Translations under genes and position numbers: made by a program
Source of the DNA: a virus
Virus record (IMG/VR): IMGVR_UViG_3300045988_008988
Location: 1 to 18,305 of that record
Direction: 5' to 3' (one strand)
Length of the DNA: 18,305 nt
Shown: positions 100-18,305 of the stretch, piece by piece
Layout: the number at the start of each line of letters is the position of its first letter
Position numbering within the stretch: position 1 is the stretch's first letter
Notes under the pieces: model-generated
Database searches by the model: none
What the model was told of the DNA's origin: nothing
Seen by the model: the letters and a program-made list of their open reading frames with translations, nothing else

Positions 100-100
100 A

Positions 101-140: not shown

Positions 141-151
141 GCTTATGTTGT

Positions 152-1036: not shown

Positions 1037-1038
1037 TA

Positions 1039-1401
1039 TTATTCTTTCTTGTGCTTGTCATTTGTGGATTGAGCGAAAATCTGCATGAATGGCGCGTTTT
1101 TTAATTCGGGATTGATTTCGGTGATGTTTTCGAGGATTGATGTGAGTTCGATGAGGCATATCCCACTGACCGTGCAGATGAATACGGACACTGGCAGTCC
1201 CAGATCGATATGTCGGTTCACTTCGTCGATAAACCATGCCACTAGCGTGAGTAGGAAATATGCGAACTTGTGCCCTAGTCCCTCCCGCATTTTTCTTGAG
1301 CTGAGATTGTCTTGCATGATGGCTTTTGTCACGCCCGTAACGTAGTCGGTGGTGATGAAGAATGTGACTGCAATGGTACACCATATATCTGCTTGCGTCA
1401 T
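1039..1401 (-). CDS. Holin (Phage_holin_4_1-like)
   Basis: Small protein with three hydrophobic segments (WCTIAVTFFITTDYVTGV, FAYFLLTLVAWFI, VSVFICTVSGICLIELTSIL), immediately upstream of the endolysin. I prefer ATG 1401 because its upstream context AAGAAAG..AATAATA-ATG matches the endolysin start. The ORF track begins at GTG 1413. Confidence 0.8.
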   Translation of the reverse strand: MTQADIWCTIAVTFFITTDYVTGVTKAIMQDNLSSRKMREGLGHKFAYFLLTLVAWFIDEVNRHIDLGLPVSVFICTVSGICLIELTSILENITEINPELKNAPFMQIFAQSTNDKHKKE

Positions 1402-1409
1402 TATTATTC

Positions 1410-2507: not shown

Positions 2508-2514
2508 AATATCC

Positions 2515-2523
2515 ATTATACCA
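2515..2523 (-). promoter_or_regulatory. Extended -10 promoter box TGGTATAAT(GG)
   Basis: Exact TGnTATAAT on the coding strand between the wall hydrolase and ATPase genes, directly after a palindromic hairpin. No good -35. Confidence 0.5.
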
Positions 2524-2535
2524 TACAATAGCAAC

Positions 2536-2557
2536 AACCGGTAGATATCTACCGGTT
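2536..2557 (-). terminator. Perfect 22-nt palindrome or hairpin after the wall-hydrolase gene
   Basis: AACCGGTAGATATCTACCGGTT is fully self-complementary. It is followed on the minus strand by the U-rich GUUGCUAUUGUAU and lies 11 nt after the TAG stop at 2568. Confidence 0.5.
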
Positions 2558-2567
2558 TACCGTTGTA

Positions 2568-3851: not shown

Positions 3852-3895
3852 GGCGCGGAACCGTGTGATATATGTTATGGGCTATGCCTCACGCC

Positions 3896-3973
3896 CTAAT
3901 GTAATGGTGCGCCGTCCATATCCCAATACCGGCCTTGAGTCTGTCTAATCCAATCATCAAAAGTAATAGCCAT
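3896..3973 (-). CDS. Possible leaderless 25-codon small ORF in the hydrolase leader
   Basis: ATG 3973 lies exactly 6 nt after the TGCTATAAT box, with no SD. It would encode MAITFDDWIRQTQGRYWDMDGAPLH. The only support is this geometry, which the portal and ATPase starts share. Confidence 0.2.
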   Translation of the reverse strand: MAITFDDWIRQTQGRYWDMDGAPLH

Positions 3974-3998
3974 GCCGCCATTATAGCAGCATGGCTAT
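3966..3998 (-). terminator. Hairpin after the fibre gene with an extended -10 box in its loop
   Basis: Perfect 10-bp stem (3966-3975 ATAGCCATGC with 3989-3998 GCATGGCTAT) and a 13-nt loop. On the minus strand it is followed by UACUUUUGAUGAUU. The loop contains TGCTATAAT (3980-3988). Confidence 0.55.
3980..3988 (-). promoter_or_regulatory. Extended -10 promoter box TGCTATAAT(GG)
   Basis: Exact TGnTATAAT on the coding strand within the 163-nt gap between the fibre and hydrolase genes. Confidence 0.45.
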
Positions 3999-4014
3999 CG
4001 CTTAAAATAGTCCG

Positions 4015-5949: not shown

Positions 5950-5952
5950 TGT

Positions 5953-6144
5953 CTAGTCCTTTTTTTCTCGAATTTGAGTATTGAGCTGGTTTAGAATCTG
6001 ATCTATCATGCGCATGGCTCTGTTGAACCCGTCGCGCATGTCCATCGGTGTCGCGTCATTGTAAAGCGGTAGTCCAAAATGTCCCGTCACACCGTATGCG
6101 GCTGAGTCCACTGGCGTGGTCTGCTGTCCGTCTGGCATGTCCAT
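5953..6144 (-). CDS. Short protein (63 aa) consisting mainly of a tail-fibre N-terminal anchor motif
   Basis: Contains HFGLPLYNDATPMDMRDGFNRAMRMIDQIL, paralogous to the N-termini of the two flanking ORFs. ATG 6144 overlaps the upstream TGA (TGATG) and follows a GGGAGAG SD. TAG stop. Confidence 0.6.
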   Translation of the reverse strand: MDMPDGQQTTPVDSAAYGVTGHFGLPLYNDATPMDMRDGFNRAMRMIDQILNQLNTQIREKKD

Positions 6145-6497
6145 CACTCTCCCGAAGCAGTGGTGGAAACGAACGGCAAGCCCTCCGCAGTGACCTTCGT
6201 ATCGTTAAGGTTTCTGACGGTATACTGTCCGCCACCGGTGGCCGGCACGCGGTTAAGGAAGTGATTAAGCGCGGTACCGAGCGCATTGGCGTTAGCTGCG
6301 CTCAATCCGAGAGCGGTGGCGAACGCGCTCAATCCCTCCGGCAGTGCCTCCGGTGTCGGGATGGCGTCAATCCTGTCCGACTGAGTTTTCAATGTCGTGT
6401 CGAGAATGTCCATCGAACGATTGTACGAACCTTCAAGATTCGGCACGTCAGTCGCGCTATATTTCTCCAAATTGTAATTCGGCGTTTTCTGCGTCAT
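6144..6497 (-). CDS. Short tail-fibre-like protein (117 aa) with the N-terminal anchor motif
   Basis: NYNLEKYSATDVPNLEGSYNRSMDILDTTL at the N-terminus. Strong AAGGAGA SD before ATG 6497. Confidence 0.7.
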   Translation of the reverse strand: MTQKTPNYNLEKYSATDVPNLEGSYNRSMDILDTTLKTQSDRIDAIPTPEALPEGLSAFATALGLSAANANALGTALNHFLNRVPATGGGQYTVRNLNDTKVTAEGLPFVSTTASGE

Positions 6498-6514
6498 TTG
6501 TCTTTCTCCTTATA

Positions 6515-7105
6515 TTACTGAGCGGTTTTCATAAAATGGTTGACCACGACGCCATTGGCGAGATTTTCCACCGTTAGCGGGTTGACGGGTTCGCCGTCAT
6601 CCACGTGCGCGTCGCGTGGCGTGATGCGCGGCTCGTTGTTGTGGAAAATGGTCTTGTTGCCGAGTACGGCGAACTCAAGGCATGAGTGCGCTGAGGCCAT
6701 CGGCACAGACAATTGCGCCATTTGGTTGACGCGTGCGCCGAAAACGGCCAATTCGCGGTACATATTACGCATTGCGTCAACGCTATTAACGTATCGTCCT
6801 TGCGTTACGTCATAAATATCATTGGTGATCTCGAGCTTGCCGAGCTTGCTTATAATATCCTCAAGCTGCACGTCAACCGACGCAAGATGCTCGTTGATTT
6901 CGGAGATTTCCACATCTGTCTTGTCGTATTCAGACTTCACCCATTCTTTCACCTTATCTACATATGTCTGCAAAGCGTCAAGATTATGGCGCAAGCATTC
7001 AATTAACTGTAATGTGGTCAATCCGTCACGATAGGTGAACGGAACAGATGTAGGCACCCCGTCGAACAGGCGTTGCCGTGGAACCAGTGCATTAATGTCA
7101 CTCAT
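6515..7105 (-). CDS. Hypothetical structural protein, tail or neck associated by position
   Basis: 196 aa counted from ATG 7105 (GGGAG SD 5 nt upstream; the ORF track starts at 7117). It has a central heptad-like helical stretch (LDALQTYVDKVKEWVKSEYDKTDVEISEINEHLASVDVQLEDIISKL). It lies between the lower collar and the fibres. No recognisable motif. Confidence 0.6.
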   Translation of the reverse strand: MSDINALVPRQRLFDGVPTSVPFTYRDGLTTLQLIECLRHNLDALQTYVDKVKEWVKSEYDKTDVEISEINEHLASVDVQLEDIISKLGKLEITNDIYDVTQGRYVNSVDAMRNMYRELAVFGARVNQMAQLSVPMASAHSCLEFAVLGNKTIFHNNEPRITPRDAHVDDGEPVNPLTVENLANGVVVNHFMKTAQ

Positions 7106-7107
7106 GA

Positions 7108-7902
7108 TTACTCCCATTCTTCGTAGTTATGGCAGTTACCGAATATTGTATCATACGATCCCCATACCTGCATGAAACACGGCTCTAGGCTGCGCACGAT
7201 TTCCATGTCCACGTTGATAATCGCCTGACGGTACTCTTGAATCAGGCTCATGGCGCTCTGGCTGCGCCCTGTCACGTGGCTCTTGCCCTTGGCGTTGCTT
7301 GAATCATGCTGGTAGTCGGTCGCGCTTTGCGCCGTGGTGTGGCTGGTCGAATCCTGCGAACTGGACGCGGTGCCGGAGCTGTCCGCTTGCGACTCGTTCG
7401 CGTGCGAGGCGTAGCGTGCGAAGTCGCCCACAACGCCGGTTTGCGGCACGTCACTGTCAAAACTCTTCGACGTGGTGGTGCTGGAATTATCCGACTTGCT
7501 ATTGCTGGAGCTGGTCGAATCCTGCATACTGGACGCTTTGCCCGACGACTGGGATTCGCTGCCGCTCTCGCTATCCGTCGTCATGTCCATGGAATCCAAC
7601 GGGTTGTATTCGATGTCCAACGTCTGATAGCGTTCATTGAAATAGGGCATGATTTCCGCCATGGTCATTCCCAGATAGAAAACGAATTGCTGGGCGGTTT
7701 CCTGTCCGATTTCCCGAAGCGCGTAATGGCGGATGATTTTCTCGTTCAACTCGGCGCGATGGTCTTCATCGTAAATCGGATAATAGTTGGCGCTGAGATG
7801 CAGCTTGTCGTCGGTATCATATCCGAATGCAATGAGATTGCCGAGGGTTTCGGTGTACTCGCCGGGCGTCGCCATCGCATAGGCGCTAAAATCCTGTGTC
7901 AC
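7108..7902 (-). CDS. Lower collar protein (phi29 gp11 type) with a Ser/Thr-rich insertion
   Basis: The N-terminal YPIYDEDHRAELNEKIIRHYALREIGQETAQQFVFYLGMTMAEIMPYFNERY matches the conserved lower-collar signature of small podoviruses as I recall it. GTG start with a GGAGG SD, overlapping the portal stop (GTGA). Directly downstream of the portal. Confidence 0.75.
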   Translation of the reverse strand: MTQDFSAYAMATPGEYTETLGNLIAFGYDTDDKLHLSANYYPIYDEDHRAELNEKIIRHYALREIGQETAQQFVFYLGMTMAEIMPYFNERYQTLDIEYNPLDSMDMTTDSESGSESQSSGKASSMQDSTSSSNSKSDNSSTTTSKSFDSDVPQTGVVGDFARYASHANESQADSSGTASSSQDSTSHTTAQSATDYQHDSSNAKGKSHVTGRSQSAMSLIQEYRQAIINVDMEIVRSLEPCFMQVWGSYDTIFGNCHNYEEWE

Positions 7903-8849
7903 AATACGCCTCCAATACCAGCGTCGTATGATGCGGGCATGTCGATATCCGCAGTGCCGCTTGCGCTAGAGTCAAGCGCGTTGGGCACTCCGGCACTTTG
8001 CACGTCCGCGTACTCTACCCACACGTTTAGTTGCGGCCACAGTCGGTTGATCTCCGTTGCCGCCGCCTGCCGCGCCTTAAGGAAACTCAATCGAAACACG
8101 TCCGTTTTCTCGTTGGCCTGCGCCACCTCGTCGGATATCAGTCTTTCCTTTTTTTCCGTGCCGGACGATTGAATGCCAAGATATCCCAGCACCTCGTTAG
8201 TGACCTGCGCCTTCTGCTGAATGAACTTGTCCAGCAGGTAAGGCGTAGTGTTGGGCCACGGTTGGAACATCGAACCGGGGTCAAGTGAATCATATCCGAT
8301 GATATAATCCTGACCGTCCTGACGCTGCTGGAGCATGTTCTGCACGGTGAGTTTTGTGCGCGGGTCGGCTGTGATGATGGTTGGCAGTTTCAGGCTCTCC
8401 AAATTCACATCATACGCTTTGTCGATATCTGCAAGGCGTCGCGCGTACTGCCATAATGTCGGCTTGAATCCGACGCGCATTCGATTGTCCCAAATTGGAA
8501 TGCATTCCGAGCCTGCTTTGAGTTGCCTATAGTGGTAGTTGACGCCTACCGGCTCGAACATAGTGGGATTATTGTACACATTCAGCCGACCTTGATAGCC
8601 CGCCTGAGTCACAAGGAACCTGCCGATACGCTTATCCTCGAAAAACAACGCGCACCCGTATTCGCACAGACATATTTCCAGCCAACGCTCATCCACAGTG
8701 GGCGGTAATCCGCGCCAGCTGAAACGGTTCAATGCGAGTTCCGTCAGTAAATGAAGATACATGTCATCAAGCGTGGCAGCGCGTGTTTTCGCGTAATTGC
8801 CGCGTGGATGCAACGCGCCGCCGACTCGATTCTTTTTAGACCTACTCAT
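7899..8849 (-). CDS. Portal (upper collar/connector) protein, phi29 gp10 type
   Basis: 316 aa (phi29 gp10 is about 309). GIQSSGTEKKERLISDEVAQANEKTD..FLKARQAAATEINRLW parallels the recalled gp10 segment [40 protein letters not shown]. The basic N-terminus MSRSKKNR resembles gp10 MARKRSN. Confidence 0.9.
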   Translation of the reverse strand: MSRSKKNRVGGALHPRGNYAKTRAATLDDMYLHLLTELALNRFSWRGLPPTVDERWLEICLCEYGCALFFEDKRIGRFLVTQAGYQGRLNVYNNPTMFEPVGVNYHYRQLKAGSECIPIWDNRMRVGFKPTLWQYARRLADIDKAYDVNLESLKLPTIITADPRTKLTVQNMLQQRQDGQDYIIGYDSLDPGSMFQPWPNTTPYLLDKFIQQKAQVTNEVLGYLGIQSSGTEKKERLISDEVAQANEKTDVFRLSFLKARQAAATEINRLWPQLNVWVEYADVQSAGVPNALDSSASGTADIDMPASYDAGIGGVL

Positions 8850-8855
8850 ATTGCC

Positions 8856-8864
8856 ATTATATCA
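8856..8864 (-). promoter_or_regulatory. Extended -10 box TGATATAAT(GG), 6 nt upstream of the portal ATG
   Basis: Exact TGnTATAAT. Its TGA is the tail-knob stop codon. No SD lies between the box and ATG 8849. Confidence 0.45.
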
Positions 8865-11171
8865 CTCGTAGCCAATGCCAGGCAGTGGCTCATTGTCCGC
8901 CCAATCGGTCACGCCGATATCCTCCGGTCTGCTCCATACGGTAACGCCTCTCTCGAACATGCCCTTAATGGTCAGCCGTGCCTGTTCGGGCAGTGTACCT
9001 TTAATATAGCATTCCTGCATCTGCCAGTACGAGAATTTCTCCATGCATTGCAGACTTGCGGGCGGGGTGACGAACCGTTGGACAAAATACCCGAAGCGCA
9101 GCATGAATTCGCCCACCGAACGCAACGCGCTGGGGGCGCACGTGCGGAAACGAACCAACACGCCCATAATACCGTTAGCGAGGTTGAACGAGTCGCCGCC
9201 CGCCGAACCGCTCGTAGTCGGCGGGGTCATCTGCATTTGCTGGACTTGAGCGTTAATTCCAGCTATCGAGTTCTCATAGTCTCCTTCGGCAAAGCGCGTG
9301 GCCAGTCGATAGTTCTGACCAGCCATCAAAGCGCTAGACGTGCCCTGAATCTGCTGGGCACGTTGCGCGTAAGTGTTCGCCTGCGAGGTTTGCGCCGCAT
9401 TGGTTGCCACACTGTTGGCAGTGTTCGCCGCCGCCGTGTCGTTGGCGATGTCACGGCTGGCGTACAGTCCCTTGTTGGCGATGTCGTTCTGTACGATGCC
9501 GCCGATGGCGCCAGCGGCGCCGCCAATCAGTCCGGCCACGCTCCCTGACGCCAATGCGTTCCCCGCATTAGAAATCAGCCCCCACGTGGTTTGCGCGTTG
9601 TTTTGTGATACGTTCAGGTTGATCATGGCGTTAGTGTTCGCCTGTCCGATGGCCAACGACCGGTTAAGTGAGTTGGCTGCAATGGCGTTAAGCGCGTTCC
9701 GGTTCGTAATACCCAGTTGGGTCATCTCTTGCTGAGTGCGAATCGCCGTGCCGGCCTGAGATAATGCGTTGGCTGCGCTCATGGTCGCTTTTTGCTGCGC
9801 CCAACCGGCAGACTGCTCCGCATATGCGCGAGCGTATGTGCTGTTTGCCATAGCAAGCGAAGCCCCGTTGTTCACCACCATGAACTGCGGGAAGTTTGTG
9901 ATACCAAAACTCACGTTAAGCATTTCTCCGCCGTCAATCGGCAGCCCGGTGCCGTTCCCGGACGGGGAGGAAACGGCAGACGCGCCTCCCGTATTGTAGT
10001 TCACCGGGTAAAAGTTCAGGCGCGGAGACGGTGGCGCGTAGTTCCACGTTTCGCGGATAACCAAGTCATTAGACTGGATATCTTCGGGCCGATAGATGAT
10101 ATTCGAGCCATTCAGGCACGAGCATTCCACGACGCTATACGGGTAGCACTGTAGTTTTTTTAGATTATGGTACCGTTTGGGGATATTAAAGTTATTGCGA
10201 AAATTCTTGATAGAGACAATATCGTCATACCTGTTATCGCTTTTAGCCTCCCATATAAACGTATACACATGCCCCTTAACCACACCGGCCGCGTCGTTGC
10301 CAAAAAATTGCGTTACCTCTCTGCCGGCGTCAGCTATATAGTCGGCGCTAATTTTGGGGATGGCGTAAATCGCCGTAATGCCCTGAGTGACCCACGGGTA
10401 CGAACCCCCTGCCTGCATAACGCGCGTAAAATCGTCGGCGGTGTCAAAATAATAAATCCCCGCGCCATTGGATTGATTCTCGAATTGTGAGCCTTGCGCG
10501 GTTTTCAGCGACGGTTTTTCAGTACTACCGCCCGACACCACAAGATCGGTTGTAGCCACGACAATGACACCATAATCCAAGGTTGGTGAGTTAAACCCGG
10601 GCTGCGCGGGCTTGCTGGACACAAGCGCCGTATATGACTGTGAGGTAACGACGGTTTCCGCGCCGGTGTCCAGTCCCTCCGGCAGTGCAAGCGTGGTACG
10701 CCCGTAATCGTCCCATTGGCGTTCATTGGCAATGCCGATATGGCCGCGCGTCACATAGCAGCTACCAAAGCTTACGTCAAATTGGAAACTCTGCCATACG
10801 TCCAGCATAAGCGTGAGCTGTGTGGTGTGCGCGTTAATGTATTCCACGGATTCGATGAAATAATACCAAGCGCGTGGCGATCCCAGTTCGGGGTAATCGT
10901 TGACGGCGACGAGGTAATTATAGTTTGATGCTTGGTTAAATGGCATGTCGATACGAACGGGGGCGCCGAAAATATGCATGGTGGCCGGACGGCATTCCAC
11001 TCCGTCCAGTTTGTCGAACCATTCTCGCTGCGTTTCACGTGAAACAAACCGTACGATATCACGGTATGAAGCATCCCACGGCACTCGGCAGAGTTTCAAC
11101 GTCGTGTTTGGCGTCCATTCCGCCCACGAAAAATTCGACTCCACATAAGGATTCACGTCGTCAATCATCAT
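8862..11171 (-). CDS. Tail knob (distal tube) protein, phi29 gp9 type, with an enlarged internal loop
   Basis: YNYLVAVNDYPELGSPRAWYYFIESVEYINAHTTQLTLMLDVWQSFQFDVSF parallels the recalled gp9 segment [48 protein letters not shown]. The C-terminus FSYWQMQECYIKG..GVTVW parallels FNYVQTKDCFISG..GITLW. The start is probably ATG 11171 or 11168, after GGAGGACA; the ORF track starts at 11201. Confidence 0.88.
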   Translation of the reverse strand: MMIDDVNPYVESNFSWAEWTPNTTLKLCRVPWDASYRDIVRFVSRETQREWFDKLDGVECRPATMHIFGAPVRIDMPFNQASNYNYLVAVNDYPELGSPRAWYYFIESVEYINAHTTQLTLMLDVWQSFQFDVSFGSCYVTRGHIGIANERQWDDYGRTTLALPEGLDTGAETVVTSQSYTALVSSKPAQPGFNSPTLDYGVIVVATTDLVVSGGSTEKPSLKTAQGSQFENQSNGAGIYYFDTADDFTRVMQAGGSYPWVTQGITAIYAIPKISADYIADAGREVTQFFGNDAAGVVKGHVYTFIWEAKSDNRYDDIVSIKNFRNNFNIPKRYHNLKKLQCYPYSVVECSCLNGSNIIYRPEDIQSNDLVIRETWNYAPPSPRLNFYPVNYNTGGASAVSSPSGNGTGLPIDGGEMLNVSFGITNFPQFMVVNNGASLAMANSTYARAYAEQSAGWAQQKATMSAANALSQAGTAIRTQQEMTQLGITNRNALNAIAANSLNRSLAIGQANTNAMINLNVSQNNAQTTWGLISNAGNALASGSVAGLIGGAAGAIGGIVQNDIANKGLYASRDIANDTAAANTANSVATNAAQTSQANTYAQRAQQIQGTSSALMAGQNYRLATRFAEGDYENSIAGINAQVQQMQMTPPTTSGSAGGDSFNLANGIMGVLVRFRTCAPSALRSVGEFMLRFGYFVQRFVTPPASLQCMEKFSYWQMQECYIKGTLPEQARLTIKGMFERGVTVWSRPEDIGVTDWADNEPLPGIGYE

Positions 11172-11186
11172 TGTCCTCCGGTATGG

Positions 11187-11227
11187 CAAGGCCCGGAGCA
11201 ATCACGTGGATTACGCTCCGGGCCTTG
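11187..11227 (-). promoter_or_regulatory. GC-rich 13-bp hairpin just upstream of the tail-knob RBS
   Basis: CAAGGCCCGGAGC (11187-11199) pairs perfectly with GCTCCGGGCCTTG (11215-11227) around a 15-nt loop. It shares CGTGATTGCT and the downstream GCCAT..ACC-RBS layout with the hairpin at 13395-13422. Confidence 0.6.
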
Positions 11228-11240
11228 TCCTGCATCACAC

Positions 11241-11258
11241 CGTGAGAGAAGGTAGCCA
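11241..11258 (-). terminator. Short hairpin after the capsid gene (weak terminator or attenuator)
   Basis: On the minus strand, GGTAGCC-GATT-GGCTACC (7-bp stem) followed by UUCUCUC. It lies 22 nt after the capsid stop. Confidence 0.4.
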
Positions 11259-11273
11259 ATCGGCTACCCTCCC

Positions 11274-11282
11274 ATTATATCA
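11274..11282 (-). promoter_or_regulatory. Extended -10 box TGATATAAT(GG) overlapping the capsid stop codon
   Basis: The same 11-mer, TGATATAATGG, occurs at 8854-8864. Here its TGA is the capsid stop. Confidence 0.4.
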
Positions 11283-13010
11283 CGCGGTCACGGTCACACT
11301 CTTCTCCCCGGACACGCCGAACAGCGTGGCGGTGATATCAGAAGCGCCCGCCTTGACGCCAGTCACCACGCCGGACTCGGACACGGTGGCGTTCGCCGGA
11401 GTGCCGGACGTCCATGCGGCCTGTGCGGTCACGTCGGCGGTACGCCCGTCGATCATGGTCGCCACGGCGGTCGCCTGCGCCGTATGTCCTACGGTCACGT
11501 TCGGGACGGTCACGGCAATCGATGCGACGATGGAGGGGTTGAATCCGATAACACCGTCACCGACCACGGGCACGTCCAGAGCTGCGGACACGGTGCCCGG
11601 CACTTCCGGCGTCGCCGGGTTCGTGTACAAGGCGGTTGCGGTAATCGGGATGGTGGTGTTCGGTTCGTCAAGACCGACCACCAGCACGCCGGTAGGCGAG
11701 ATATACGTGTAATCGCTCTTCGGCTTAACAGTATCGCCAATGCGATACTCGACCGCATCGGAGCGGAACGTGGCGGCACCGTCATTAGTGATGGTCGTGT
11801 CGGCGGTGACCTGCACCGCGCCACCACGCGCCACATTGTTCGGAGTTTCCGCACCGCCGCCGTACATGGCGAGTTTGAGTTGGAATGTCGGCGTCTGAGC
11901 CTGCGTGCCGGCAGGGGCCACCACGTTGGCCGTGGACGCCGCGCCGGTCCAGAACATCACAGCCGGAGCAAAGCCGGACACCGAGATGATGTGCTGTACA
12001 TGCAGATAATGGTTGACCGAATTGATGTTGACGGGGTTGGTCTGCTGGGTCATCTCGTTGATGACCGGAATGTCGATCAAAAACTTGTCGGTCGTCAGAA
12101 TGGCCTGCACGCCATCCATGCCGAAACGGTCCTGCGGAATGACTATAATCCGGTCGATGGTCGGCTCGGCGTCCGTACGCTGAAATACCGTGGCGAGGCC
12201 CTGCACGTCAAGCGCCGACTTGACTTCCGGCGAACAGAACAGCACGAGTTCGTCAGGACGGGCAAAGGTCGGCATGTGACGGGCGTTGTACTTGGTGGAA
12301 ACGAATTTTAGCGTGTCGGCCCATGCGCGAATCTGGCGCAGCATGTCGCGGGCGTCGGTTTCCGAACTACCCATATTATTCAGATCATTGTCCATATGGA
12401 CACGCCAGTATCCGCCGAGTTTCGCGTACTCCACGAACTGATGGCACAATGCCTCGAAAAGGTCAACCTCGGCCGCATTATAGCAGGATGTGAGAATCTG
12501 CGAGGTGAGCGATGCCAAACCGTTTTCGGACGTGAAAGCACGCTGCAATGTCTTGTCGTCCGTAGTTGCGGGATACCAGTGAGCGAAATCCAGACGGTGG
12601 TAGAGCGAGTCCACGTCGATTTTCCACTTGCGGAAATTGTCAGCGCCGAGATATTCCGCATCAGGATCATAGACCTGCGCAAGCGGCATTCCCACGGCGA
12701 TTTCCTGCCACGTGTCGCCATACGCCTGCGATGCACGCTGAAAAACGCTAAGCGGATTGTTCCAACGCCACGTATTCACGTAGGTGCCGCCGATACGGTT
12801 CACCAATGCCGAGTAAAACTCGTTCTTCAGCTGGGTAGACGACATGAGCGTAGCCATCTGCCTATCCATATTCATCTGAGTGGCCGAGGGCATTCGCCGC
12901 TGGTACTCTGGCGACGCCTCGTTGCGAATCATATTGAGAATCTGGGCGTTGTTGAATTCGGTGAGCGGGCGAAGCTGCTGCTTCGGCGTCACCACTGGAG
13001 TAGTTGCCAT
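11280..13010 (-). CDS. Major capsid protein with a C-terminal Ig-like (Big_2) domain
   Basis: 576 aa, directly after the scaffold gene, with an AGGAAGGA SD. The C-terminal ~75 aa (VTVGHTAQATAVATMIDGRTADVTAQAAWTSGTPANATVSESGVVTGVKAGASDITATLFGVSGEKSVTVTA) is a textbook Big_2 pattern, and phi29 gp8 also carries a BIG2 domain. Position and size match the capsid gene of phi29-like phages. Confidence 0.85.
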   Translation of the reverse strand: MATTPVVTPKQQLRPLTEFNNAQILNMIRNEASPEYQRRMPSATQMNMDRQMATLMSSTQLKNEFYSALVNRIGGTYVNTWRWNNPLSVFQRASQAYGDTWQEIAVGMPLAQVYDPDAEYLGADNFRKWKIDVDSLYHRLDFAHWYPATTDDKTLQRAFTSENGLASLTSQILTSCYNAAEVDLFEALCHQFVEYAKLGGYWRVHMDNDLNNMGSSETDARDMLRQIRAWADTLKFVSTKYNARHMPTFARPDELVLFCSPEVKSALDVQGLATVFQRTDAEPTIDRIIVIPQDRFGMDGVQAILTTDKFLIDIPVINEMTQQTNPVNINSVNHYLHVQHIISVSGFAPAVMFWTGAASTANVVAPAGTQAQTPTFQLKLAMYGGGAETPNNVARGGAVQVTADTTITNDGAATFRSDAVEYRIGDTVKPKSDYTYISPTGVLVVGLDEPNTTIPITATALYTNPATPEVPGTVSAALDVPVVGDGVIGFNPSIVASIAVTVPNVTVGHTAQATAVATMIDGRTADVTAQAAWTSGTPANATVSESGVVTGVKAGASDITATLFGVSGEKSVTVTA

Positions 13011-13032
13011 GATGGTTATTCCTTCCTAATTG

Positions 13033-13374
13033 TCAGTCTTCATATAGGTCGTCGAACGTGCTGTAGGTGCCGTTGTAGTCGTCGTCGGTCATTTCAGCCG
13101 ATTCCGGCGTCGCGTCATCATCGGGGCCGTCGTGCAGCACGTGGTCTGCTGCCGCGTCGCGCATCGCCTCGATGGTTTTGGACAGTTCCGCCACGGTCGC
13201 CTCCAATGCGCTCAACCGGTCGGCCATGTCGGCGTCCTTGTCATCGCCCGCATCTTCAGGCTCACCATCGGTCTGCGTTTCCGGCTCCGGGTTCGGCGTA
13301 TTGTCGTCGGCGTTCGCGTCCGGCTCGTTGTCGGGCGTGATATCCGGCTTGTCATCATTTTCGGTGTCGTCCAT
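13033..13374 (-). CDS. Scaffolding protein (phi29 gp7 position)
   Basis: 113 aa, very acidic (Asp/Glu-rich ends) with a central helical segment (RLSALEATVAELSKTIEAMRDAAA). Immediately upstream of the capsid gene. ATG 13374 follows a GAGGTG SD; the ORF track starts at GTG 13380. Confidence 0.65.
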   Translation of the reverse strand: MDDTENDDKPDITPDNEPDANADDNTPNPEPETQTDGEPEDAGDDKDADMADRLSALEATVAELSKTIEAMRDAAADHVLHDGPDDDATPESAEMTDDDYNGTYSTFDDLYED

Positions 13375-13394
13375 AATCACCTCTTAAGGTAGAT

Positions 13395-13422
13395 GGCACG
13401 GCAGCAATCACGCTGCCGTGCC
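13395..13422 (-). promoter_or_regulatory. Perfect 11-bp hairpin 3 nt upstream of the scaffold RBS
   Basis: GGCACGGCAGC pairs with GCTGCCGTGCC around a 6-nt loop (GUGAUU on the minus strand). No U-tract follows, so it is more likely a processing, stability or translational element than a terminator. Confidence 0.6.
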
Positions 13423-13435
13423 GGAATTGCTAGGC

Positions 13436-13546
13436 TGTGCGGGTTCCCTCGCCGTCAATGGGCGTTGGCTACGCACGTCTACATCCGACCGGATCGCCTT
13501 ACCGATTGCCTACCGGTCGGGCCATTGAATCAGCTTGGGACGCACA
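13436..13546 (-). ncRNA. Candidate structured RNA (three-way junction): pRNA-like or late-operon leader
   Basis: Hand-folded nested helices on the minus strand. The closing stem is 13546-13541 with 13441-13436 (6 bp), 13540-13537 with 13448-13445 (4 bp), 13534-13531 with 13454-13451 (4 bp, one G-U) and 13528-13522 with 13461-13455 (7 bp). These close a junction holding a bulged 8+4-bp hairpin (13520-13485) and a 4-bp hairpin (13474-13462). There is no ORF here. The structure lies downstream of the TGCTATAAT box at 13561-13569. Confidence 0.4.
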
Positions 13547-13560
13547 CCCCGCTACCCGTT

Positions 13561-13569
13561 ATTATAGCA
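13561..13569 (-). promoter_or_regulatory. Extended -10 box TGCTATAAT overlapping the polymerase stop codon
   Basis: Exact TGnTATAAT at the head of the 181-nt non-coding gap before the structural genes. Candidate late promoter. Confidence 0.45.
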
Positions 13570-15022
13570 CAAAAAAACAGCCGTCATCGTTGACATGGCG
13601 AGACTTCGGCAGGAAGTCGTCGTAGGGGATAGGGGTTGCCCGATGCACGCCACTCAACCGCATCACCGTGCTGCCGTCTCCCTCTACGCCGCAATATTTG
13701 CGATTGCCGAGAATGCGAATTTTTTCATAGGTGTGGTCATTTTTCCACGCACCCAGTTTCTTGTCGTCCGTTTCGATGCCAATAGGCACGTCCAGTCCCT
13801 CCAATATCATGCCGTCCGTATCGGCGTAGAGCACACGGTCGGCGTTCGCGTTCATCGCGCGGGACAGTATTTGCCGACCGTAAGCGTTGACATAGGCGGC
13901 GGTCGGTAGCCATGCGAGTGAGTTGGCTGACTCAGGTTTGTCCACAGTAAAGTCCACGCCGCCGTCGCCGGAAGGCTTCGGATGCAGCATAGGCCGGTAA
14001 AGCGAGGCCCCGAATTTTCCCACCAGCGAGTTTAACAATAGTTTCGCCATTTGCCGACGCTCTCCGGTCGCGGTTTGTTTCACGTGAAACCATTTATCAA
14101 CGTAGCCGTAATAAAGTCCATGCGATTTACGAAACTTCCAGCCGCCGATATGATCCCACACATGGACGTCATAGTTTTCCGTCAAGGTCTGCCAATCCAC
14201 ATCGGTCACGGGCATGGTGACGACACCTAGCGTACTGTCCAGACGTTCGCCCTCATACCCCCATACTGGCAGGATATTTGTGAGCGTCGCCGTTTTTCCC
14301 GGTTTCAGTCGCGCGTCGAACGCGATAACATCGATATGCAGGGGATAATCGGCGTCATAATGATATTCCCCCTCATACCATACAGGAGTGCCTACCGGCA
14401 TGGCAAAGTCGCGCATGACACTCGGATAAAGACTATTCACATCCCAGCTGTTGCAATCCCGATATTCGCCCGGCCTGCTGTGCACTATCGCTCCATAGTA
14501 TGCGGGGCGCATCCTGTGATAATCCGCTTTGTCCAATGGCGGGAAATGGCGTTTGAATCCGGCATAATCTCCGCCGATATAGTCGGACATCGCCATAGAC
14601 GCTATGGTTGTGCCCTTAAGGTTCAGGGCGTCGCATTCCTGTGCGATGTTCCACGTGGTTTCCAAGTCATCCACGCCGCCAAATGTTTCGCGTGAGACAT
14701 TCAGCCCGTCATCGCGCGTGATGTTGCGCACGTCCAGAAAATCCACGGTGATGCCGCCCATGCGCACGCGAAAACTGTAGAAATGGCCGCGAATGTTAAA
14801 AGTGCCCCAGACTCCACTTTTTGCCGGGTTCGATTGCAATGGCAGTCGTTTCAATAGTTCTGCGGCTATGGGCTTGATGTCCTGCCATCCGTGAGCGCAC
14901 CAGACGCGCGTATGGTGGTCAAGCATGGTTAGCCGAATGACGGCATTCGCCGTCAATGGCACTATACCGTCATCTGTCAATAGTATTGCGCCGTCTGTTG
15001 CCGCCGTTCGACGCTCTCGCAT
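13562..15022 (-). CDS. Family-B DNA polymerase, protein-primed (phi29 gp2 type)
   Basis: 486 aa with DVNSLYPS (motif A), KLLLNSLVGKFG (Kx3NSxYG-type motif B), YADTDGM (YxDTDS-type motif C) and a RKY (KxY) motif. RPAYYGA..DVNSLYP parallels the recalled phi29 segment RYAYRGG..DVNSLYP. The gene follows the putative terminal protein gene, and the genome has ITRs. Confidence 0.92.
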   Translation of the reverse strand: MRERRTAATDGAILLTDDGIVPLTANAVIRLTMLDHHTRVWCAHGWQDIKPIAAELLKRLPLQSNPAKSGVWGTFNIRGHFYSFRVRMGGITVDFLDVRNITRDDGLNVSRETFGGVDDLETTWNIAQECDALNLKGTTIASMAMSDYIGGDYAGFKRHFPPLDKADYHRMRPAYYGAIVHSRPGEYRDCNSWDVNSLYPSVMRDFAMPVGTPVWYEGEYHYDADYPLHIDVIAFDARLKPGKTATLTNILPVWGYEGERLDSTLGVVTMPVTDVDWQTLTENYDVHVWDHIGGWKFRKSHGLYYGYVDKWFHVKQTATGERRQMAKLLLNSLVGKFGASLYRPMLHPKPSGDGGVDFTVDKPESANSLAWLPTAAYVNAYGRQILSRAMNANADRVLYADTDGMILEGLDVPIGIETDDKKLGAWKNDHTYEKIRILGNRKYCGVEGDGSTVMRLSGVHRATPIPYDDFLPKSRHVNDDGCFFVL

Positions 15023-15037
15023 GATTCCATCCTTTTT

Positions 15038-15982
15038 TCAGTGTCTTGCTGCGCTGATCATCCATTCGTCAAGTCGTGTCTCTACATCTCCCGCGTCCGC
15101 TTTAGTTTCCCATTTGTGCGCCTTATCATTATACCATGTTGCCTCGCGCGCGACAACACTGAAATTCGTGTTGTTTATCAGCCATCGTTTTTGTCGGTTA
15201 GACAAGGATGCGAATCTTTGGGCGACACTGGAATCGAATGCTTCGAGCTGTTGCGCGACCTTATCGAAATCCGAAACACCCTCGTTCTCGGGAATACGCC
15301 TAGTTCCCGCGCGTAATGGCGCACGTCCAATAAGTCCGGCGTATTCTAGCACTTCTCGCTCCAGTTTCCTACGGCTCCCTTCTCGCATCATCGCACGTGC
15401 ATGGCTTATTCCACGCTCTGTACCAAACACGTTCGCACGGCTTCGCACGAGTTCATCGCGTGCCGAACCGCCGACCGTGTGTGTGCCCAACACGTCGACC
15501 GGAGATTCCCCTGCGCGTTCCATTTCACGCATTTCACCCACGGTATAGCGGGCCATGCTCAGCGCCTCGAATTGTTGGGCACGCTTGATTTTCTGCCGTG
15601 CCTCAACTCGGCGGCGCTGCTGCTGCCGTAACGTTTTCCGACGTTTCGACGGAGCGGCGGCAATTTCCGCGTCGGTTATCAGCGGGCGCGCGGCCATCTC
15701 ACGATCAAGTTTCGTAACATGAACGTCTGGAACGACCTGATACGGTTCGTTATCCCGCGCCCTTAAGGCTTGCTGTTGCTCTCCGAACTCCTGCCCGATG
15801 CGTCGTGCTACCTGTTCAAGCTGTTGGGCACTGAGATTTCCTAAAAACGTTTCAGTAATTTGCTTAGGTAGACGTCCGGTGCTGTAATCTCTGACCGCTC
15901 GCTCTCGGCGCACCTGTGCCGACCTGATTGCGGCGTTGCGTTTCAGATTGTCAGCGCGTCGGCTGTTTTTGCGTTTTGCCAC
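15038..15982 (-). CDS. Putative terminal protein (phi29 gp3 position)
   Basis: A highly basic, Arg/Gln-rich protein of ~314 aa immediately upstream of the protein-primed polymerase, as gene 3 is in phi29. I recognise no diagnostic motif. I prefer GTG 15982 (GGGGGAG SD), because the longer ATG 16057 version would contain the terminator hairpin at 16006-16041. Confidence 0.5.
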   Translation of the reverse strand: MAKRKNSRRADNLKRNAAIRSAQVRRERAVRDYSTGRLPKQITETFLGNLSAQQLEQVARRIGQEFGEQQQALRARDNEPYQVVPDVHVTKLDREMAARPLITDAEIAAAPSKRRKTLRQQQRRRVEARQKIKRAQQFEALSMARYTVGEMREMERAGESPVDVLGTHTVGGSARDELVRSRANVFGTERGISHARAMMREGSRRKLEREVLEYAGLIGRAPLRAGTRRIPENEGVSDFDKVAQQLEAFDSSVAQRFASLSNRQKRWLINNTNFSVVAREATWYNDKAHKWETKADAGDVETRLDEWMISAARH

Positions 15983-16005
15983 GGTCTCCCCCTGTGAGTA
16001 TGAAA

Positions 16006-16041
16006 CACCCCTCGCCGCAAAGATGGAAACGGCGAGGGGTG
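16006..16041 (-). terminator. GC-rich hairpin (terminator or attenuator) between the SSB and terminal protein genes
   Basis: 12-bp stem (16006-16017 CACCCCTCGCCG with 16030-16041 CGGCGAGGGGTG) and a 12-nt loop. Followed on the minus strand by only a short U run (UUUCAU). Confidence 0.55.
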
Positions 16042-16049
16042 AGTTTGGC

Positions 16050-16075
16050 GGCAACATCCCTATAGGGACATTGCC
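16050..16075 (-). promoter_or_regulatory. Strand-specific 11-bp hairpin with a UAUA loop
   Basis: On the minus-strand RNA, GGCAAUGUCCC-UAUA-GGGAUGUUGCC pairs fully, with two G-U wobbles. On the plus-strand RNA those two positions would be C-A mismatches. A TGATATCAT -10-like box abuts it at 16076-16084. Confidence 0.5.
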
Positions 16076-16103
16076 ATGATATCACACGGTGCGGACAATA
16101 ATG

Positions 16104-16541
16104 TTACTTGCGCTTGTTTTCCGACACCAGTTCAAGGTCGAAGAATTTGTAGCCACGACGACTCTTCTTTTCCACCACCTTGAGAGCAAGCGGCGCAGAC
16201 CATGTGTCCGGCGTGCCGAAAATGGCGAACAGATTGCCGAATGCGTGCGCCAACGTGGGGGAGGCGGCGGCAAAGTCGCCTTCCTCTGCGTGAATGACGA
16301 CGCGGGTAGACGAATTGATTTCACCAGTCTCCTGATTGGCGACCTCGATAGCCTGCGCCAGCACGTTGGTGACATGCAACGGTTCATTAAGGTGTTCATC
16401 TACCTTATCGGCGGTCTGCATGGCGTTGTACAGCGCCATCTTTCCGTCCATGGTGGAAGTATCGAAAAAGTGGGATACGGCGTTAGTGCCGTTCGCGGAA
16501 AAGTTATTGCCGTTCGTTACGGTCAGTTCGTTGTCAGCCAT
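16104..16541 (-). CDS. Single-stranded DNA-binding protein, phi29 p5-like
   Basis: 145 aa. FFDTSTMDGKMALYNA, RVVIHAEEGDFAAASPTLAHAFGNLFAIF and LALKVVEKKSRRGYKFFDLEL parallel the recalled phi29 p5 segments FDTETLEGQIKIFNA, TTIFAADGSLYSAISKTVAEAASDLIDLV and FKVKVVQGTSSKGNVFFSLQL. The position upstream of the TP and polymerase genes matches gene 5. AAGGAAAGG SD. Confidence 0.6.
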   Translation of the reverse strand: MADNELTVTNGNNFSANGTNAVSHFFDTSTMDGKMALYNAMQTADKVDEHLNEPLHVTNVLAQAIEVANQETGEINSSTRVVIHAEEGDFAAASPTLAHAFGNLFAIFGTPDTWSAPLALKVVEKKSRRGYKFFDLELVSENKRK

Positions 16542-16572
16542 TAGTGTTGCCTTTCCTTATAGGGGTTGTTAA

Positions 16573-16884
16573 TTATTTTTCCTCGGTGATGATATCATCT
16601 TCAACAACGTTGCCATTAACCGGCCCCGGATAATCGATGATGGTATCATCTCCAAATTCACAATTAGCCCAGTAGATTGCTTCATCCATGCGCGTTGCTT
16701 GCGCATGATATTCGGCGGACATTGGTAGCATGTCCTTGTTGATTTTGCGGGCTTTTTTCATAGCCATGTCAGCTGTACGGCACGCGCCATTCACGACTAC
16801 CTCAGTGTCAACGAGTTCGCCGTTTTCACCGCGCGTGATGCCGCGCACAATACTGTAATGCTTGGCTCTCTTAATGTATGCCAT
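16573..16884 (-). CDS. Hypothetical early protein, possibly a p6-like dsDNA-binding protein
   Basis: 103 aa from ATG 16884 (AAGGCGG SD 7 nt upstream). Its size, acidic C-terminal tail (VVEDDIITEEK) and position just upstream of the SSB mirror phi29 gene 6. Sequence resemblance is only vague. Confidence 0.55.
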   Translation of the reverse strand: MAYIKRAKHYSIVRGITRGENGELVDTEVVVNGACRTADMAMKKARKINKDMLPMSAEYHAQATRMDEAIYWANCEFGDDTIIDYPGPVNGNVVEDDIITEEK

Positions 16885-16901
16885 AATCATACCGCCTTAT
16901 C

Positions 16902-17432
16902 TTATTGTTGCTGCTGTTGTGACATTCTTGCAATGTCTTCATCAGTATACCGCATGTCAGTGAGATTGTCAAAACATCGACACGCGATTTTAACAACGGT
17001 CTGGGCAAATTCATTACCATCCCAGGCCTTGCACATTTCATAACATGTCGCACCTTTGACATGACAGACGGCGCACCACGCCACCATAGCCGGAGCATAA
17101 ATAACGCCACCCAACATTTCAATATCCTGAGTTCGCGCCAACGCGCCGATGCGCGACGTGCGGGGGGAAAGTGATAAGCAAACGTTTGCCGCATGTTCGA
17201 TGCCGTCAGCGAACGCCACCTGAGCACCTTGAGGCTCATAAAAGACCTTGAGTAGCGCTATACTACGACATAATGTTTCCCAGTCCCCCTCTCCTCGATT
17301 ATATTCGCGCAAATGCAACTTACGCCGACGACCACGAATGACACGGCGCACACGATCATCATCTAGTATGCCATCATCAAACCAGTTCGTACGTTTATCG
17401 CCGTCATCACAATTCAAGTTCTTCAATTTCAT
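16902..17432 (-). CDS. Hypothetical early protein, Cys-rich with a poly-Gln C-terminus
   Basis: 176 aa with a TGGAG SD. Contains WCAVCHVKGATCYEMCKAW..ACRCF and ends in QQQQQ. No recognisable family. Confidence 0.6.
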   Translation of the reverse strand: MKLKNLNCDDGDKRTNWFDDGILDDDRVRRVIRGRRRKLHLREYNRGEGDWETLCRSIALLKVFYEPQGAQVAFADGIEHAANVCLSLSPRTSRIGALARTQDIEMLGGVIYAPAMVAWCAVCHVKGATCYEMCKAWDGNEFAQTVVKIACRCFDNLTDMRYTDEDIARMSQQQQQ

Positions 17433-17434
17433 AA

Positions 17435-17644
17435 TTAAAACTCCAGTGTATCCTCGCTAAACCCAGCACCATACAACCACATGTTTAACCACACAGCCTT
17501 ATCTGGGCACCGTTTCGGCGGATTATAAGCGCTATGCCCATGCCGCACACCAGCCCAAAAAGCGCGCAAACGCCAATACGTATCAGCGTCAGGACAGTTG
17601 CCACACGTCCACGAATGAATCCAACCACGAAAATACACAATCAA
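17435..17644 (-). CDS. Hypothetical small Trp-rich early protein
   Basis: 69 aa, starting at TTG 17644 or GTG 17638 (AGGGA SD), coupled to the upstream stop. Rich in Trp and Cys. Confidence 0.5.
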   Translation of the reverse strand: MIVYFRGWIHSWTCGNCPDADTYWRLRAFWAGVRHGHSAYNPPKRCPDKAVWLNMWLYGAGFSEDTLEF

Positions 17645-17892
17645 TCCCTATCCTTAAGCGGTTTGGCCGCGATACCCATAGCGTCCAGTACCATGGCTCG
17701 CATTTCGTTCGCCTTCGTAGGGTCATAACCACACCGCGCGACCCCCTTAGTCAAGCCGATAGGCGTATGAAACTCAACATCATATGTTAGATAAAACAAG
17801 TGTTGGTGAGTGCAGTATTCGATACGCACATCACCCCCCATATGAGGGCTGTTGAACCTTCCGACACGAATATCTCCATAAGACATTTTCAA
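17641..17892 (-). CDS. Hypothetical early protein
   Basis: 83 aa. ATG 17892 follows a GGAAGGA SD, which lies ~18 nt downstream of the TTGGTG-16-TGGTATAAT promoter. Confidence 0.6.
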   Translation of the reverse strand: MKMSYGDIRVGRFNSPHMGGDVRIEYCTHQHLFYLTYDVEFHTPIGLTKGVARCGYDPTKANEMRAMVLDAMGIAAKPLKDRD

Positions 17893-17910
17893 TCATCCTT
17901 CCCTAATCAA

Positions 17911-17938
17911 ATTATACCAAAAACGATAACAACACCAA
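17911..17938 (-). promoter_or_regulatory. Candidate early promoter: TTGGTG, 16-nt spacer, TGGTATAAT
   Basis: -35-like TTGGTG (17933-17938), a 16-nt spacer and an extended -10 TGGTATAAT (17911-17919), followed by an SD and ATG 17892. This is the most complete sigma-70-type promoter in the window. Confidence 0.6.
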
Positions 17939-17976
17939 TAATACACGCGCAAATAACAAGAACAGAAGAAAGCATA

Positions 17977-18300
17977 TCAATACACCACCTTGTAATAATA
18001 AACCACATATCCGCTTGAAACGTTATATTCAGAAGAGAGCAGGTTAACATGAGCGTAAGATATGACTCCTTCAATCTGGAGAACTCTACGCAAAGCTTCA
18101 TAAGAGTCTTTGGCATGGACTACACGATAACTACGAGTCGGCGACTCCACTTGGAGATAGTCGCGTCCATCCCAATCAACAATGATATACGTATACCCTT
18201 TCACACTCACGCTTTCCTCGAACGCTTCGATAAAATCACCAGCCGGAAACAAATCACAATCACCATACTCCTCAATGATCATATCATTGACCAAAGCCAC
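17977..18300 (-). CDS. Hypothetical first early ORF, opening inside the right ITR
   Basis: The frame is open from GTG 18300, only 5 nt from the terminus. A more realistic start is GTG 18210, after GAGGAAAGC at the inner ITR edge, giving ~77 aa. The sequence looks protein-like (KGYTYIIVDWDGRDYLQVESPTRSYRVVHAKDSYEALRRVLQIEG). No known family. Confidence 0.45.
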   Translation of the reverse strand: MALVNDMIIEEYGDCDLFPAGDFIEAFEESVSVKGYTYIIVDWDGRDYLQVESPTRSYRVVHAKDSYEALRRVLQIEGVISYAHVNLLSSEYNVSSGYVVYYYKVVY

Positions 18301-18305
18301 ATGAT
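18207..18305. repeat. Right inverted terminal repeat (ITR), 99 bp
   Basis: Exact reverse complement of bases 1-99. Confidence 0.95.

Follow-up and report, generated by a model that had tools for sequence, protein, structure and literature searches.

A conserved structured RNA gene in phi29-like phages of Actinobacteria and its probable role as a packaging RNA

The locus

The stretch of DNA analysed here, called the window throughout, is 18,305 bp long (positions 1 to 18,305 of IMG/VR virus record IMGVR_UViG_3300045988_008988). Its inverted terminal repeats of 108 nt (1-108 and 18198-18305, 96% complementary) mark it as complete, the linear genome, of the protein-primed type, of a phi29-like phage. 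(The terminal repeats of phi29 itself are only 6 nt long.) All recognisable genes lie on the minus strand. The subject of this report is a 181-nt gap in that strand (13381-13561), which follows directly on the gene for a protein-primed family B DNA polymerase (13562-15022, minus strand; PF03175, phrog_1907) and precedes a 113-aa open reading frame (ORF) in the scaffold position (13033-13374, minus strand). A preliminary description made from the sequence had read the gap as non-coding and as a candidate for an RNA resembling the packaging or prohead RNA (pRNA) of phage phi29; on the minus strand its coding potential indeed amounts to nothing beyond a 22-aa ORF with a GTG start.

IMG/VR contains about 100 distinct relatives whose polymerases share 87-94% identity with that of the window, and one polymerase of 87% identity carries the label Bifidobacterium breve in one source. 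Among GenBank phages, megablast with the entire window as query had no match, and so none near-identical; of the cultured phages the nearest are BadAztec and BD811P, both Bifidobacterium phages, with capsid identities of roughly 37-42%. The host of the window phage is probably a Bifidobacterium.

Anatomy of the RNA

Letters and order are given for the minus strand throughout. The RNA was folded by minimum free energy (MFE) and, from an alignment (A1) of 99 distinct IMG/VR relatives, by RNAalifold; the same alignment is the basis of the pair counts. MFE and RNAalifold agree on a three-way-junction RNA of 124 nt, domain I (13429-13552), closed by the pair G13552-C13429, and the 5' end of the RNA is predicted at about 13552-13555. 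According to RNAalifold and the pair counts, the paired ends form an A helix of five segments (13552-13522 with 13461-13429), whose 5' strand (13522-13552) reads GC, GGG, UGUGCG, UCCC, GCUG, UCAAUGG and whose 3' strand (13429-13461) includes a conserved 3-nt bulge, ACC. A single nucleotide, C13521, leads from the A helix into the C-E arm (13485-13520), which consists of the C helix (13520-13514 with 13491-13485), a 5' bulge (13513-13507, G UAGGC A) and the E stem-loop (13506-13493, AUCG-GUAAGG-CGAU). The nearly invariant single-stranded AUGUAGACGU (13475-13484), at the position of the phi29 UUU junction, connects this arm to the D hairpin (13462-13474, GCGU-AGCCA-ACGC), from which the chain returns straight into the A helix. 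The arrangement, with the A helix made from the paired ends, the C-E arm first and the D hairpin second, is present in the MFE fold, in the RNAalifold fold and in the pair counts alike. After a single-stranded linker of 6 nt (13428-13423) comes domain II, a second, 3' hairpin of 28 nt (13395-13422) with 11 perfect base pairs and the loop GUGAUU (13411-13406).

The helices that had been drawn by hand in the preliminary description were all reproduced, at the same coordinates, by both the MFE fold and the RNAalifold fold of the 99 relatives: a closing stem built from 13546-13541 with 13441-13436, 13540-13537 with 13448-13445, 13534-13531 with 13454-13451 and 13528-13522 with 13461-13455; the bulged hairpin 13520-13485; the small hairpin 13474-13462; and the perfect 11-bp hairpin 13422-13395. 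Both folds also leave unpaired the two complementary triplets on which a kissing contact had been proposed, GGC in the bulge (13508-13510, the equivalent of the phi29 CE loop) and GCC in the D loop (13469-13467).

One further helix was considered and rejected. The outermost helix of the MFE fold, in which the promoter spacer pairs with UACCU ahead of the ribosome-binding site (RBS), is absent from the RNAalifold fold; its 5' partner lies in a freely varying spacer, and no compensating changes are seen by eye in A1. As a separate observation, the letters GUGAUU of the domain II loop recur in the spacer between the RBS and the start codon of the scaffold gene, GGUGAUUAUG (13380-13372). The sequence GUGAU is complementary to AUCAC near the 3' end of 16S rRNA.

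Fold, conservation and covariation

The gap RNA (minus strand of 13381-13561) has an MFE of -87.4 kcal/mol, against -64.9 +/- 4.2 kcal/mol for 200 shuffled controls (z = -5.34; none of the 200 folds as well), and domain I alone reaches z = -3.6. In A1, 99.3% of the paired cells hold a base pair; sliding the 3' partners lowers this figure to 27-42%. Changes on both sides are seen in eight pairs, five of them in the terminal hairpin, that is domain II, two in the D stem and one in the A helix (columns 75/149); in the D stem, 20 sequences have C-G in place of U-A and one has U-A in place of G-C. Covariation was scored lineage by lineage, and for A1 the score is 0.116, compared with 0.075 for shuffled alignments, of which 0 of 500 reach the observed value. 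A relative of 77% identity outside A1 (L250) adds changes in two further segments of the A helix, where UGUGCG/CGCACA has become CGUGCG/CGCACG (U-A to C-G) and UCCC/GGGA has become UCCU/AGGA (C-G to U-A). Both the comparison with shuffled sequence and the compensatory changes among relatives had been put forward in advance as tests of the structure.

Domain I is as conserved as the first and second codon positions of the polymerase gene, with a mean majority frequency of 0.958 and 9% variable columns; third codon positions of the flanking genes have majority frequencies of 0.77-0.81 and 61-67% variable columns. It is as good as certain that the gap encodes a real, conserved, structured RNA gene.

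Promoter and transcription

The RNA gene has an extended -10 promoter, TGCTATAAT (13561-13569, minus strand), which contains the stop codon of the polymerase, TAA (13564-13562). This motif is kept in all relatives. The next 6-7 nt vary freely, and after this spacer conservation starts sharply at AGCGGGG, near 13553. Sequences of the form TGNTATAAT (TGnTATAAT) occur nine times in the window against 0.56 expected, a 16-fold enrichment. Eight of the nine are on the coding strand (2515-2523, 3980-3988, 8856-8864, 11274-11282, 12477-12485, 13561-13569, 15128-15136 and 17911-17919, all minus) and a single one is on the plus strand (8300-8308); they sit mostly at gene junctions and have no -35 element. 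From their number, strand and placement it follows that TGNTATAAT is very probably the promoter type used by the window phage. A simple sigma-70 scan did not detect the promoter of the RNA gene, because the -35 element is missing. The promoter motif is found at the polymerase end in every lineage examined, including those of BadAztec and BD811P and the metagenomic lineages.

At the other end of the gap, the RBS AAGAGGUG and the ATG of the scaffold gene (13372-13385, minus strand) stand 9 nt past the domain II hairpin. The hairpin has no U tract here, being followed by AUCUACCUU, and no other TGNTATAAT occurs between the RNA promoter and the scaffold gene; the next one downstream (12477-12485) is within the capsid gene. 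With no U tract, and no TGNTATAAT upstream of the scaffold gene other than that of the RNA itself, the scaffold-capsid mRNA of the window lineage probably begins with the gap RNA. A structured 5' leader, which the preliminary description had offered as the alternative to a pRNA, thus also describes the transcript physically in this lineage, where it can be reconciled with the pRNA reading.

A side observation concerns the region just upstream of the promoter. The 15 nt upstream of the -10 element of the RNA gene, GGCTGTTTTTTTGTG (13568-13582, minus strand), have an exact copy on the plus strand at 1609-1623, inside the packaging ATPase gene, where the copy is followed by ATGATATAC. The copy might serve as an antisense promoter or simply be due to chance.

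The RNA in sister lineages

The window and its close relatives are lineage A; BD811P defines lineage B, and BadAztec1/BadAargau2 lineage C. Lineage B was represented by 80 distinct sequences (BD811P2 and 79 relatives) at 70-90% identity. Its layout consists of a promoter at the polymerase end, an RNA of about 150 nt and a terminal hairpin followed by UUUUAUUUU, together a canonical terminator that a terminator scan picks up; after it come a second promoter, TGATATAAT, and a short leader ahead of the scaffold gene. Pair counts give 96.1% paired cells, 18 pairs changed on both sides and a covariation score of 0.209 against 0.138. The terminator and second promoter show that in lineage B the RNA is a gene of its own and not merely a leader. 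Lineage C is laid out in the same way. Its core is invariant, and its A helix and terminal hairpin show compensatory changes; the core of BadAztec has two competing folds, its two sequences being identical there.

Polymerase homologues at 40-77% identity led to nine further loci (L250-L258), all with the gene order SSB, ORF in the terminal-protein position, polymerase, gap of 170-195 nt, scaffold, major capsid protein. In all nine the promoter motif is present, a long helix closes the structure and a hairpin stands at its end. For lineage C IMG/VR holds the BadAztec isolate only, and for lineage D nothing useful, so that these lineages rest on one or two sequences each.

The Arthrobacter phages Anjali, Mendel, Swim and Tillums carry a like RNA (z = -5.2) between a ribbon-helix-helix gene and the scaffold gene. 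It is followed by a strong hairpin and then by a separate conserved element ahead of the scaffold gene. In these phages GACGCCGGACAGC, which in the RNA accounts for the 5' side of the C helix and for the bulge, occurs a second time after the terminator hairpin, just ahead of the scaffold gene (5015-5030 and 5143-5158 of L245; also in L260 and L261), and the ribbon-helix-helix gene adjoins the RNA. Such a repeat might serve as an operator or as a pairing site for the RNA.

One sequence motif is common across lineages. The domain II loop C-GUGAUU-G is shared by lineages A, B, D, E and F, among which the stems and domain I are unrelated; it stands at 13406-13411 (minus strand) in the window and at 4876-4881 in L162, and is present also in L251, L252, L253 and L257. 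This motif supports common ancestry only among the actinophage lineages. Two similarities in the E hairpin may be recorded as well. The E loop UUGAAU of lineages D and F and of the Arthrobacter phages (L251, L253, L245, L244) is one base off the phi29 loop UUGAGU, and the E hairpin CGUA-UUARGU-UACG is common to lineages E and G and to BadAztec.

The GenBank records of BadAztec1/BadAargau2, BD811P1-3, BP1 and Anjali/Mendel/Swim/Tillums annotate no RNA at the gap between polymerase and scaffold genes. The RNAs at this position in these cultured Bifidobacterium and Arthrobacter phages are of the same family as that of the window, which they match in position, promoter type, two-domain plan and compensatory changes. 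They differ from it in a domain I that cannot be aligned with that of the window lineage; in addition, the BD811P lineage has its true terminator and second promoter, and in the Arthrobacter phages the ribbon-helix-helix gene intervenes between the polymerase gene and the RNA. The Actinomyces phage Av-1 shows no convincing counterpart of the window RNA downstream of its polymerase gene, and Curtobacterium phage Reje no convincing structure (z = +1.1).

Complementarity of bulge and D loop

In phi29 the four bulge nucleotides beside the E stem, AACC, pair with D-loop nucleotides 2-5, GGUU. The actinophage pairing likewise uses bulge nucleotides beside the E stem and D-loop nucleotides 2-5. Within the window lineage, bulge GGC and D-loop GCC are both invariant in the 99 relatives while adjacent unpaired positions vary, and in one sub-clade (L153, L130, L109, L030) the match is lengthened to GGCAAA/UUUGCC. 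Elsewhere the complementarity is kept while the letters change: UGGCA/UGCCA in L255, which lengthens the GGC/GCC match, GACUA/UAGUC and GACUG/UGGUC in two members of lineage D (L251 and L256), CACA/UGUG in L258, GGCG/UGCC in L252, and AGCU/AGCU or longer in Anjali, Swim and Mendel. The bulge of lineage B has GCCA beside the E stem, matched by UGGC at D-loop nucleotides 2-5. This helix is 97% paired, and at its first position 63 sequences have G-C, 9 have G-U and 4 have A-U, none being mismatched; here, then, the two sides covary. Against random loops of equal lengths, the chance probability of the match is 0.003-0.04 in L255, lineages B and D, and L258. The complementarity that the preliminary description had noticed in a single genome thus recurs with other letter pairs in sister lineages.

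Comparison with the phi29 pRNA

The Rfam family RF00044 (Phage_pRNA) covers the pRNAs of a group of Bacillus phages, namely phi29, PZA, B103, M2/Nf, SF5, GA-1 and the Goe4 group. In its consensus the A helix leads through a 1-nt junction into a C helix of 9 bp, which contains a 1-nt bulge. A 5' bulge of 9 nt, an E stem of 4 bp and an E loop of 6 nt come next, followed directly by the 3' strand of the C helix; then come the UUU junction, a D stem of 6 bp with a D loop of 5 nt and, again directly, the 3' strand of the A helix. The helix order in the window is the same, with a 1-nt junction, a C helix of 7-8 bp, a 5' bulge of 6-8 nt, a 4-bp E stem, a 6-nt E loop, a 5-nt D loop and the direct return to the A helix. 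Taken more widely, the matching plan has 7-9 bp in the C helix, 6-9 nt in the 5' bulge and 6-7 nt in the E loop. In lineage B the C helix is of 3+6 bp with a 1-nt bulge, closer still to phi29. The bulge is complementary to the D loop in both, with letters that differ between lineages. The differences are a C-to-D junction of 8-10 nt where phi29 has UUU, a D stem of 4 bp rather than 6, a loop-loop helix of three G-C pairs rather than four mixed pairs, and the G+C-rich composition of the window RNA.

The phi29 pRNA has two domains, its domain II hairpin following a 13-nt linker and being conserved although dispensable in vitro (PMC5066667). The window RNA, too, is a three-way junction of about 120 nt with a 3' hairpin domain.

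Gene order provides a second line of comparison. On the minus strand of phi29 the order is genes 6, 5, 4, 3 (terminal protein), 2 (polymerase) and 1, small ORFs, the A1 promoter and the pRNA. In the window it is SSB, an ORF in the terminal-protein position, polymerase, promoter and RNA, so that both RNA genes lie downstream of the polymerase gene, on the same strand and with a promoter of their own. They differ in that the window gene is internal, between the polymerase and late genes, whereas that of phi29 is at the genome end, and in that the window RNA probably shares a transcript with the scaffold and capsid genes. The hosts also differ, being Actinobacteria (Bifidobacterium, Arthrobacter) for the candidate pRNA.

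As in phi29, the phage encodes both proteins of the packaging motor, a gp10-type connector (7899-8849, minus strand; PF05352) and a gp16-type ATPase (1410-2537, minus strand; PF05894). The connector is 32% identical to phi29 gp10 over nearly its full length, and the ATPase 30% identical to phi29 gp16 (residues 6-319 of 332, E = 2e-39). The first is the presumed docking partner of the RNA, the second the presumed partner of its A helix. The connector begins MSRSKKNRVGGALHPRGNYAKTR, a basic N-terminus, as the preliminary description had pointed out in comparing it with the docking site of the phi29 pRNA.

Other features of the genome

In transcriptional order the minus strand begins with early ORFs, which are followed by a 339-aa ORF (15038-16057, minus strand) between the SSB-side genes and the polymerase. 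This ORF matches no Pfam or PHROG family; by its position it should be the terminal protein. Downstream of the scaffold-position ORF come the capsid gene (11280-13010, Phi29_MCP), the gp9 tail knob (8862-11201), the connector, a fibre with a GDPD domain (4015-5949), the packaging ATPase and an amidase (152-1036), all on the minus strand. A perfect 20-nt inverted repeat, GTTTCACGTGAAACAAACCG, with the palindromic core GTTTCACGTGAAAC, is found twice (11032-11051 and 14071-14090), one copy within the tail-knob gene and the other within the polymerase gene; it may be a protein-binding site.

Earlier proposals of pRNAs outside Bacillus phages

Reviews from 2024 and 2016 call the pRNA unique to phi29 and related Bacillus phages (PMC11476376, PMC5066667), and full-text literature searches brought up no pRNA described from phages of Bifidobacterium or Arthrobacter. 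The preliminary description had likewise held that no pRNA had been defined outside the Bacillus group. That statement needs amending, as pRNAs of phi29-like phages beyond Bacillus have been proposed before, for Av-1 in its database record and for Cp-1 in a proposal cited in PMC6266182; it stands to the extent that these proposals were made only by prediction. According to PMC6266182, the proposed Cp-1 pRNA is one that a pRNA covariance model does not reliably find. The record of Av-1 (NC_009643; L247) annotates a packaging RNA as misc_RNA 16295-16402. That sequence folds no better than shuffled controls (z = +0.5), and it differs from the window RNA in lying at the other genome end and overlapping opposite-strand ORFs. 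Neither proposal has the comparative support found for the window RNA.

Interpretation

The gap RNA is probably a prohead (packaging) RNA, the counterpart of the phi29 pRNA in phi29-like phages that infect Actinobacteria. Each prediction of the pRNA-like reading that was open to computational test was borne out: the gene is conserved, has its promoter motif, folds and covaries as a three-way junction, keeps the complementarity of its two loops, and lies in a syntenic position in a genome with homologous motor proteins.

A number of observations weigh against this identification. With a gathering threshold of 100 bits (phi29, as the positive control, scores 145.4 bits), RF00044 finds nothing in the window at that threshold, nor in 13300-13650 at E values up to 10; it also finds nothing in L161/L162, nor in L248-L258 at E values up to 5. 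A covariance model of lineage B domain I misses the window, BadAztec1 and phi29, even with filters off. With no model linking the two, homology with the Bacillus pRNA therefore rests on synteny and architecture. In the window itself the match between bulge and D loop has a chance probability of about 0.2 (0.3 in L252), and the pairing of the window lineage, of only 3 bp, is invariant and therefore beyond a covariation test in that lineage. Tillums keeps only 3 bp after both sides have changed. The cores of L253, L257 and BadAztec give no clean fit to the plan of bulge and D loop, and the folds of L253 and L257 no clean pRNA plan in general. The pattern of letters, moreover, would look alike for pairing between molecules and for an internal pseudoknot. 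Lastly, the window lineage has neither a U tract nor a second promoter after the RNA hairpin, so that a discrete small RNA is not assured. As to the first of these points, pRNAs are reported to share only about 12% sequence similarity among themselves (PMC5066667), and set beside that divergence the lack of a model link is not out of line.

On a different reading, which we consider unlikely, the product is a stable small RNA with some other job in trans (it might regulate host or phage transcripts, act as a decoy against host defence or take part in replication as a cofactor); bulge and D loop would then form an internal pseudoknot, and the resemblance in shape to pRNA would be convergent. This reading would account for an RNA with a promoter and terminator of its own and no model-based homology to pRNA, and for the cross-lineage GUGAUU loop, which has no known counterpart in phi29 pRNA. 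Against it stand the position of the gene next to the polymerase gene, as in phi29, and the match in helix order, junction lengths, side of the bulge and sizes of the E and D loops; and the RNA always co-occurs with motor genes of the gp10 and gp16 types, whose phi29 versions need pRNA (PMC5066667).

Improbable to a similar degree is that the RNA has no packaging role and acts only in cis, as a 5' leader of the scaffold-capsid operon whose structured fold senses a factor or sets the stability or translation of the mRNA (e.g. an attenuator, an antiterminator or a platform for a regulatory protein). The arrangement in the window would suit such a leader, with a hairpin that lacks a U tract, ends 9 nt ahead of the scaffold RBS, and is separated from the scaffold gene by no other TGNTATAAT. 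Av-1 also has a promoter, a short RNA of about 60 nt and a strong 14-bp hairpin with U5 just ahead of its first late gene (L247, 4471-4611). The 80 genomes of the BD811P lineage decide otherwise for their own case, as the terminator and second promoter place the RNA outside the late mRNA, and the Arthrobacter phages have the strong hairpin after the RNA and then a separate element before the scaffold gene. A leader would have no evident need for a complementarity between bulge and loop that changes its letters from lineage to lineage. Nor does any Rfam riboswitch or leader match: across the window and ten sister loci no other credible Rfam family is found, and the best hit, to the S15 leader, scores 17.5 bits where the cut-off is 49.

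That the gap codes for a protein on the plus strand (ORFs 13393-13593 and 13437-13625), its structure being a by-product of G+C-rich coding, can be dismissed. An open frame does span the whole gap in 99 of 99 relatives, but every identified gene lies on the minus strand, variation clusters in compensatory pairs, annotated relatives have no coding sequence in the gap, and 1- and 2-nt indels among close relatives break the frame (A1 column 94 is present in about half), so that there is no conserved plus-strand protein.

Taking the gap RNA as a packaging RNA, we infer its transcript ends, ring formation, binding to prohead and ATPase, and part in packaging along the following lines. Host RNA polymerase would start at TGCTATAAT, overlapping the stop codon of the polymerase gene, and make a product of about 160-175 nt, composed of the 124-nt domain I, the 6-nt linker and the 28-nt domain II hairpin. 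The three-way junction of domain I would present a long A helix made from the paired ends, an arm with the bulge and the E stem-loop, and the short D hairpin. The bulge GGC of one molecule would pair with the D-loop GCC of the next, closing a ring of RNAs on the connector of the empty prohead, and the free end of the A helix would hold the gp16-type ATPase, itself without a connector-binding domain. The complex of RNA and ATPase would then pump the terminal-protein-capped genome into the head and leave. In the window lineage the domain II hairpin would be at best a weak terminator, so a short RNA would have to arise by partial termination or by processing, while the transcript would probably double as the 5' end of the scaffold-capsid mRNA. 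If this is true, the RNA would be the leading part of the transcript that carries the scaffold and capsid genes, and the supply of motor RNA would therefore be coupled to the supply of prohead proteins.

Significance

A conserved, covarying, pRNA-shaped gene in a syntenic position makes the need for RNA beyond the Bacillus phages directly testable, and cultured phages that carry it are at hand (BD811P1-3, BP1, BadAztec, Anjali). Should the identification hold, the annotation of hundreds of gut phage genomes would be corrected, and distant sequences would become available from which to work out which pRNA features matter. RNA nanotechnology would gain G+C-rich three-way junctions and new kissing-loop pairs, the natural letter pairs of bulge and D loop being a ready set of orthogonal, G+C-rich, ring-forming RNAs.

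For the biology of these phages, the RNA-dependent packaging motor would extend beyond the Bacillus phages, and the motor RNA would predate the split between the lineages that infect Firmicutes and those that infect Actinobacteria. We lean, with less assurance than for the packaging role itself, to the view that the prohead RNA is an ancestral part of the phi29-type motor, which survives, diverged beyond recognition, in the phi29-like phages of Actinobacteria; that history, if true, would span the Bifidobacterium phages of the gut and the bee gut and the Arthrobacter phages of soil.

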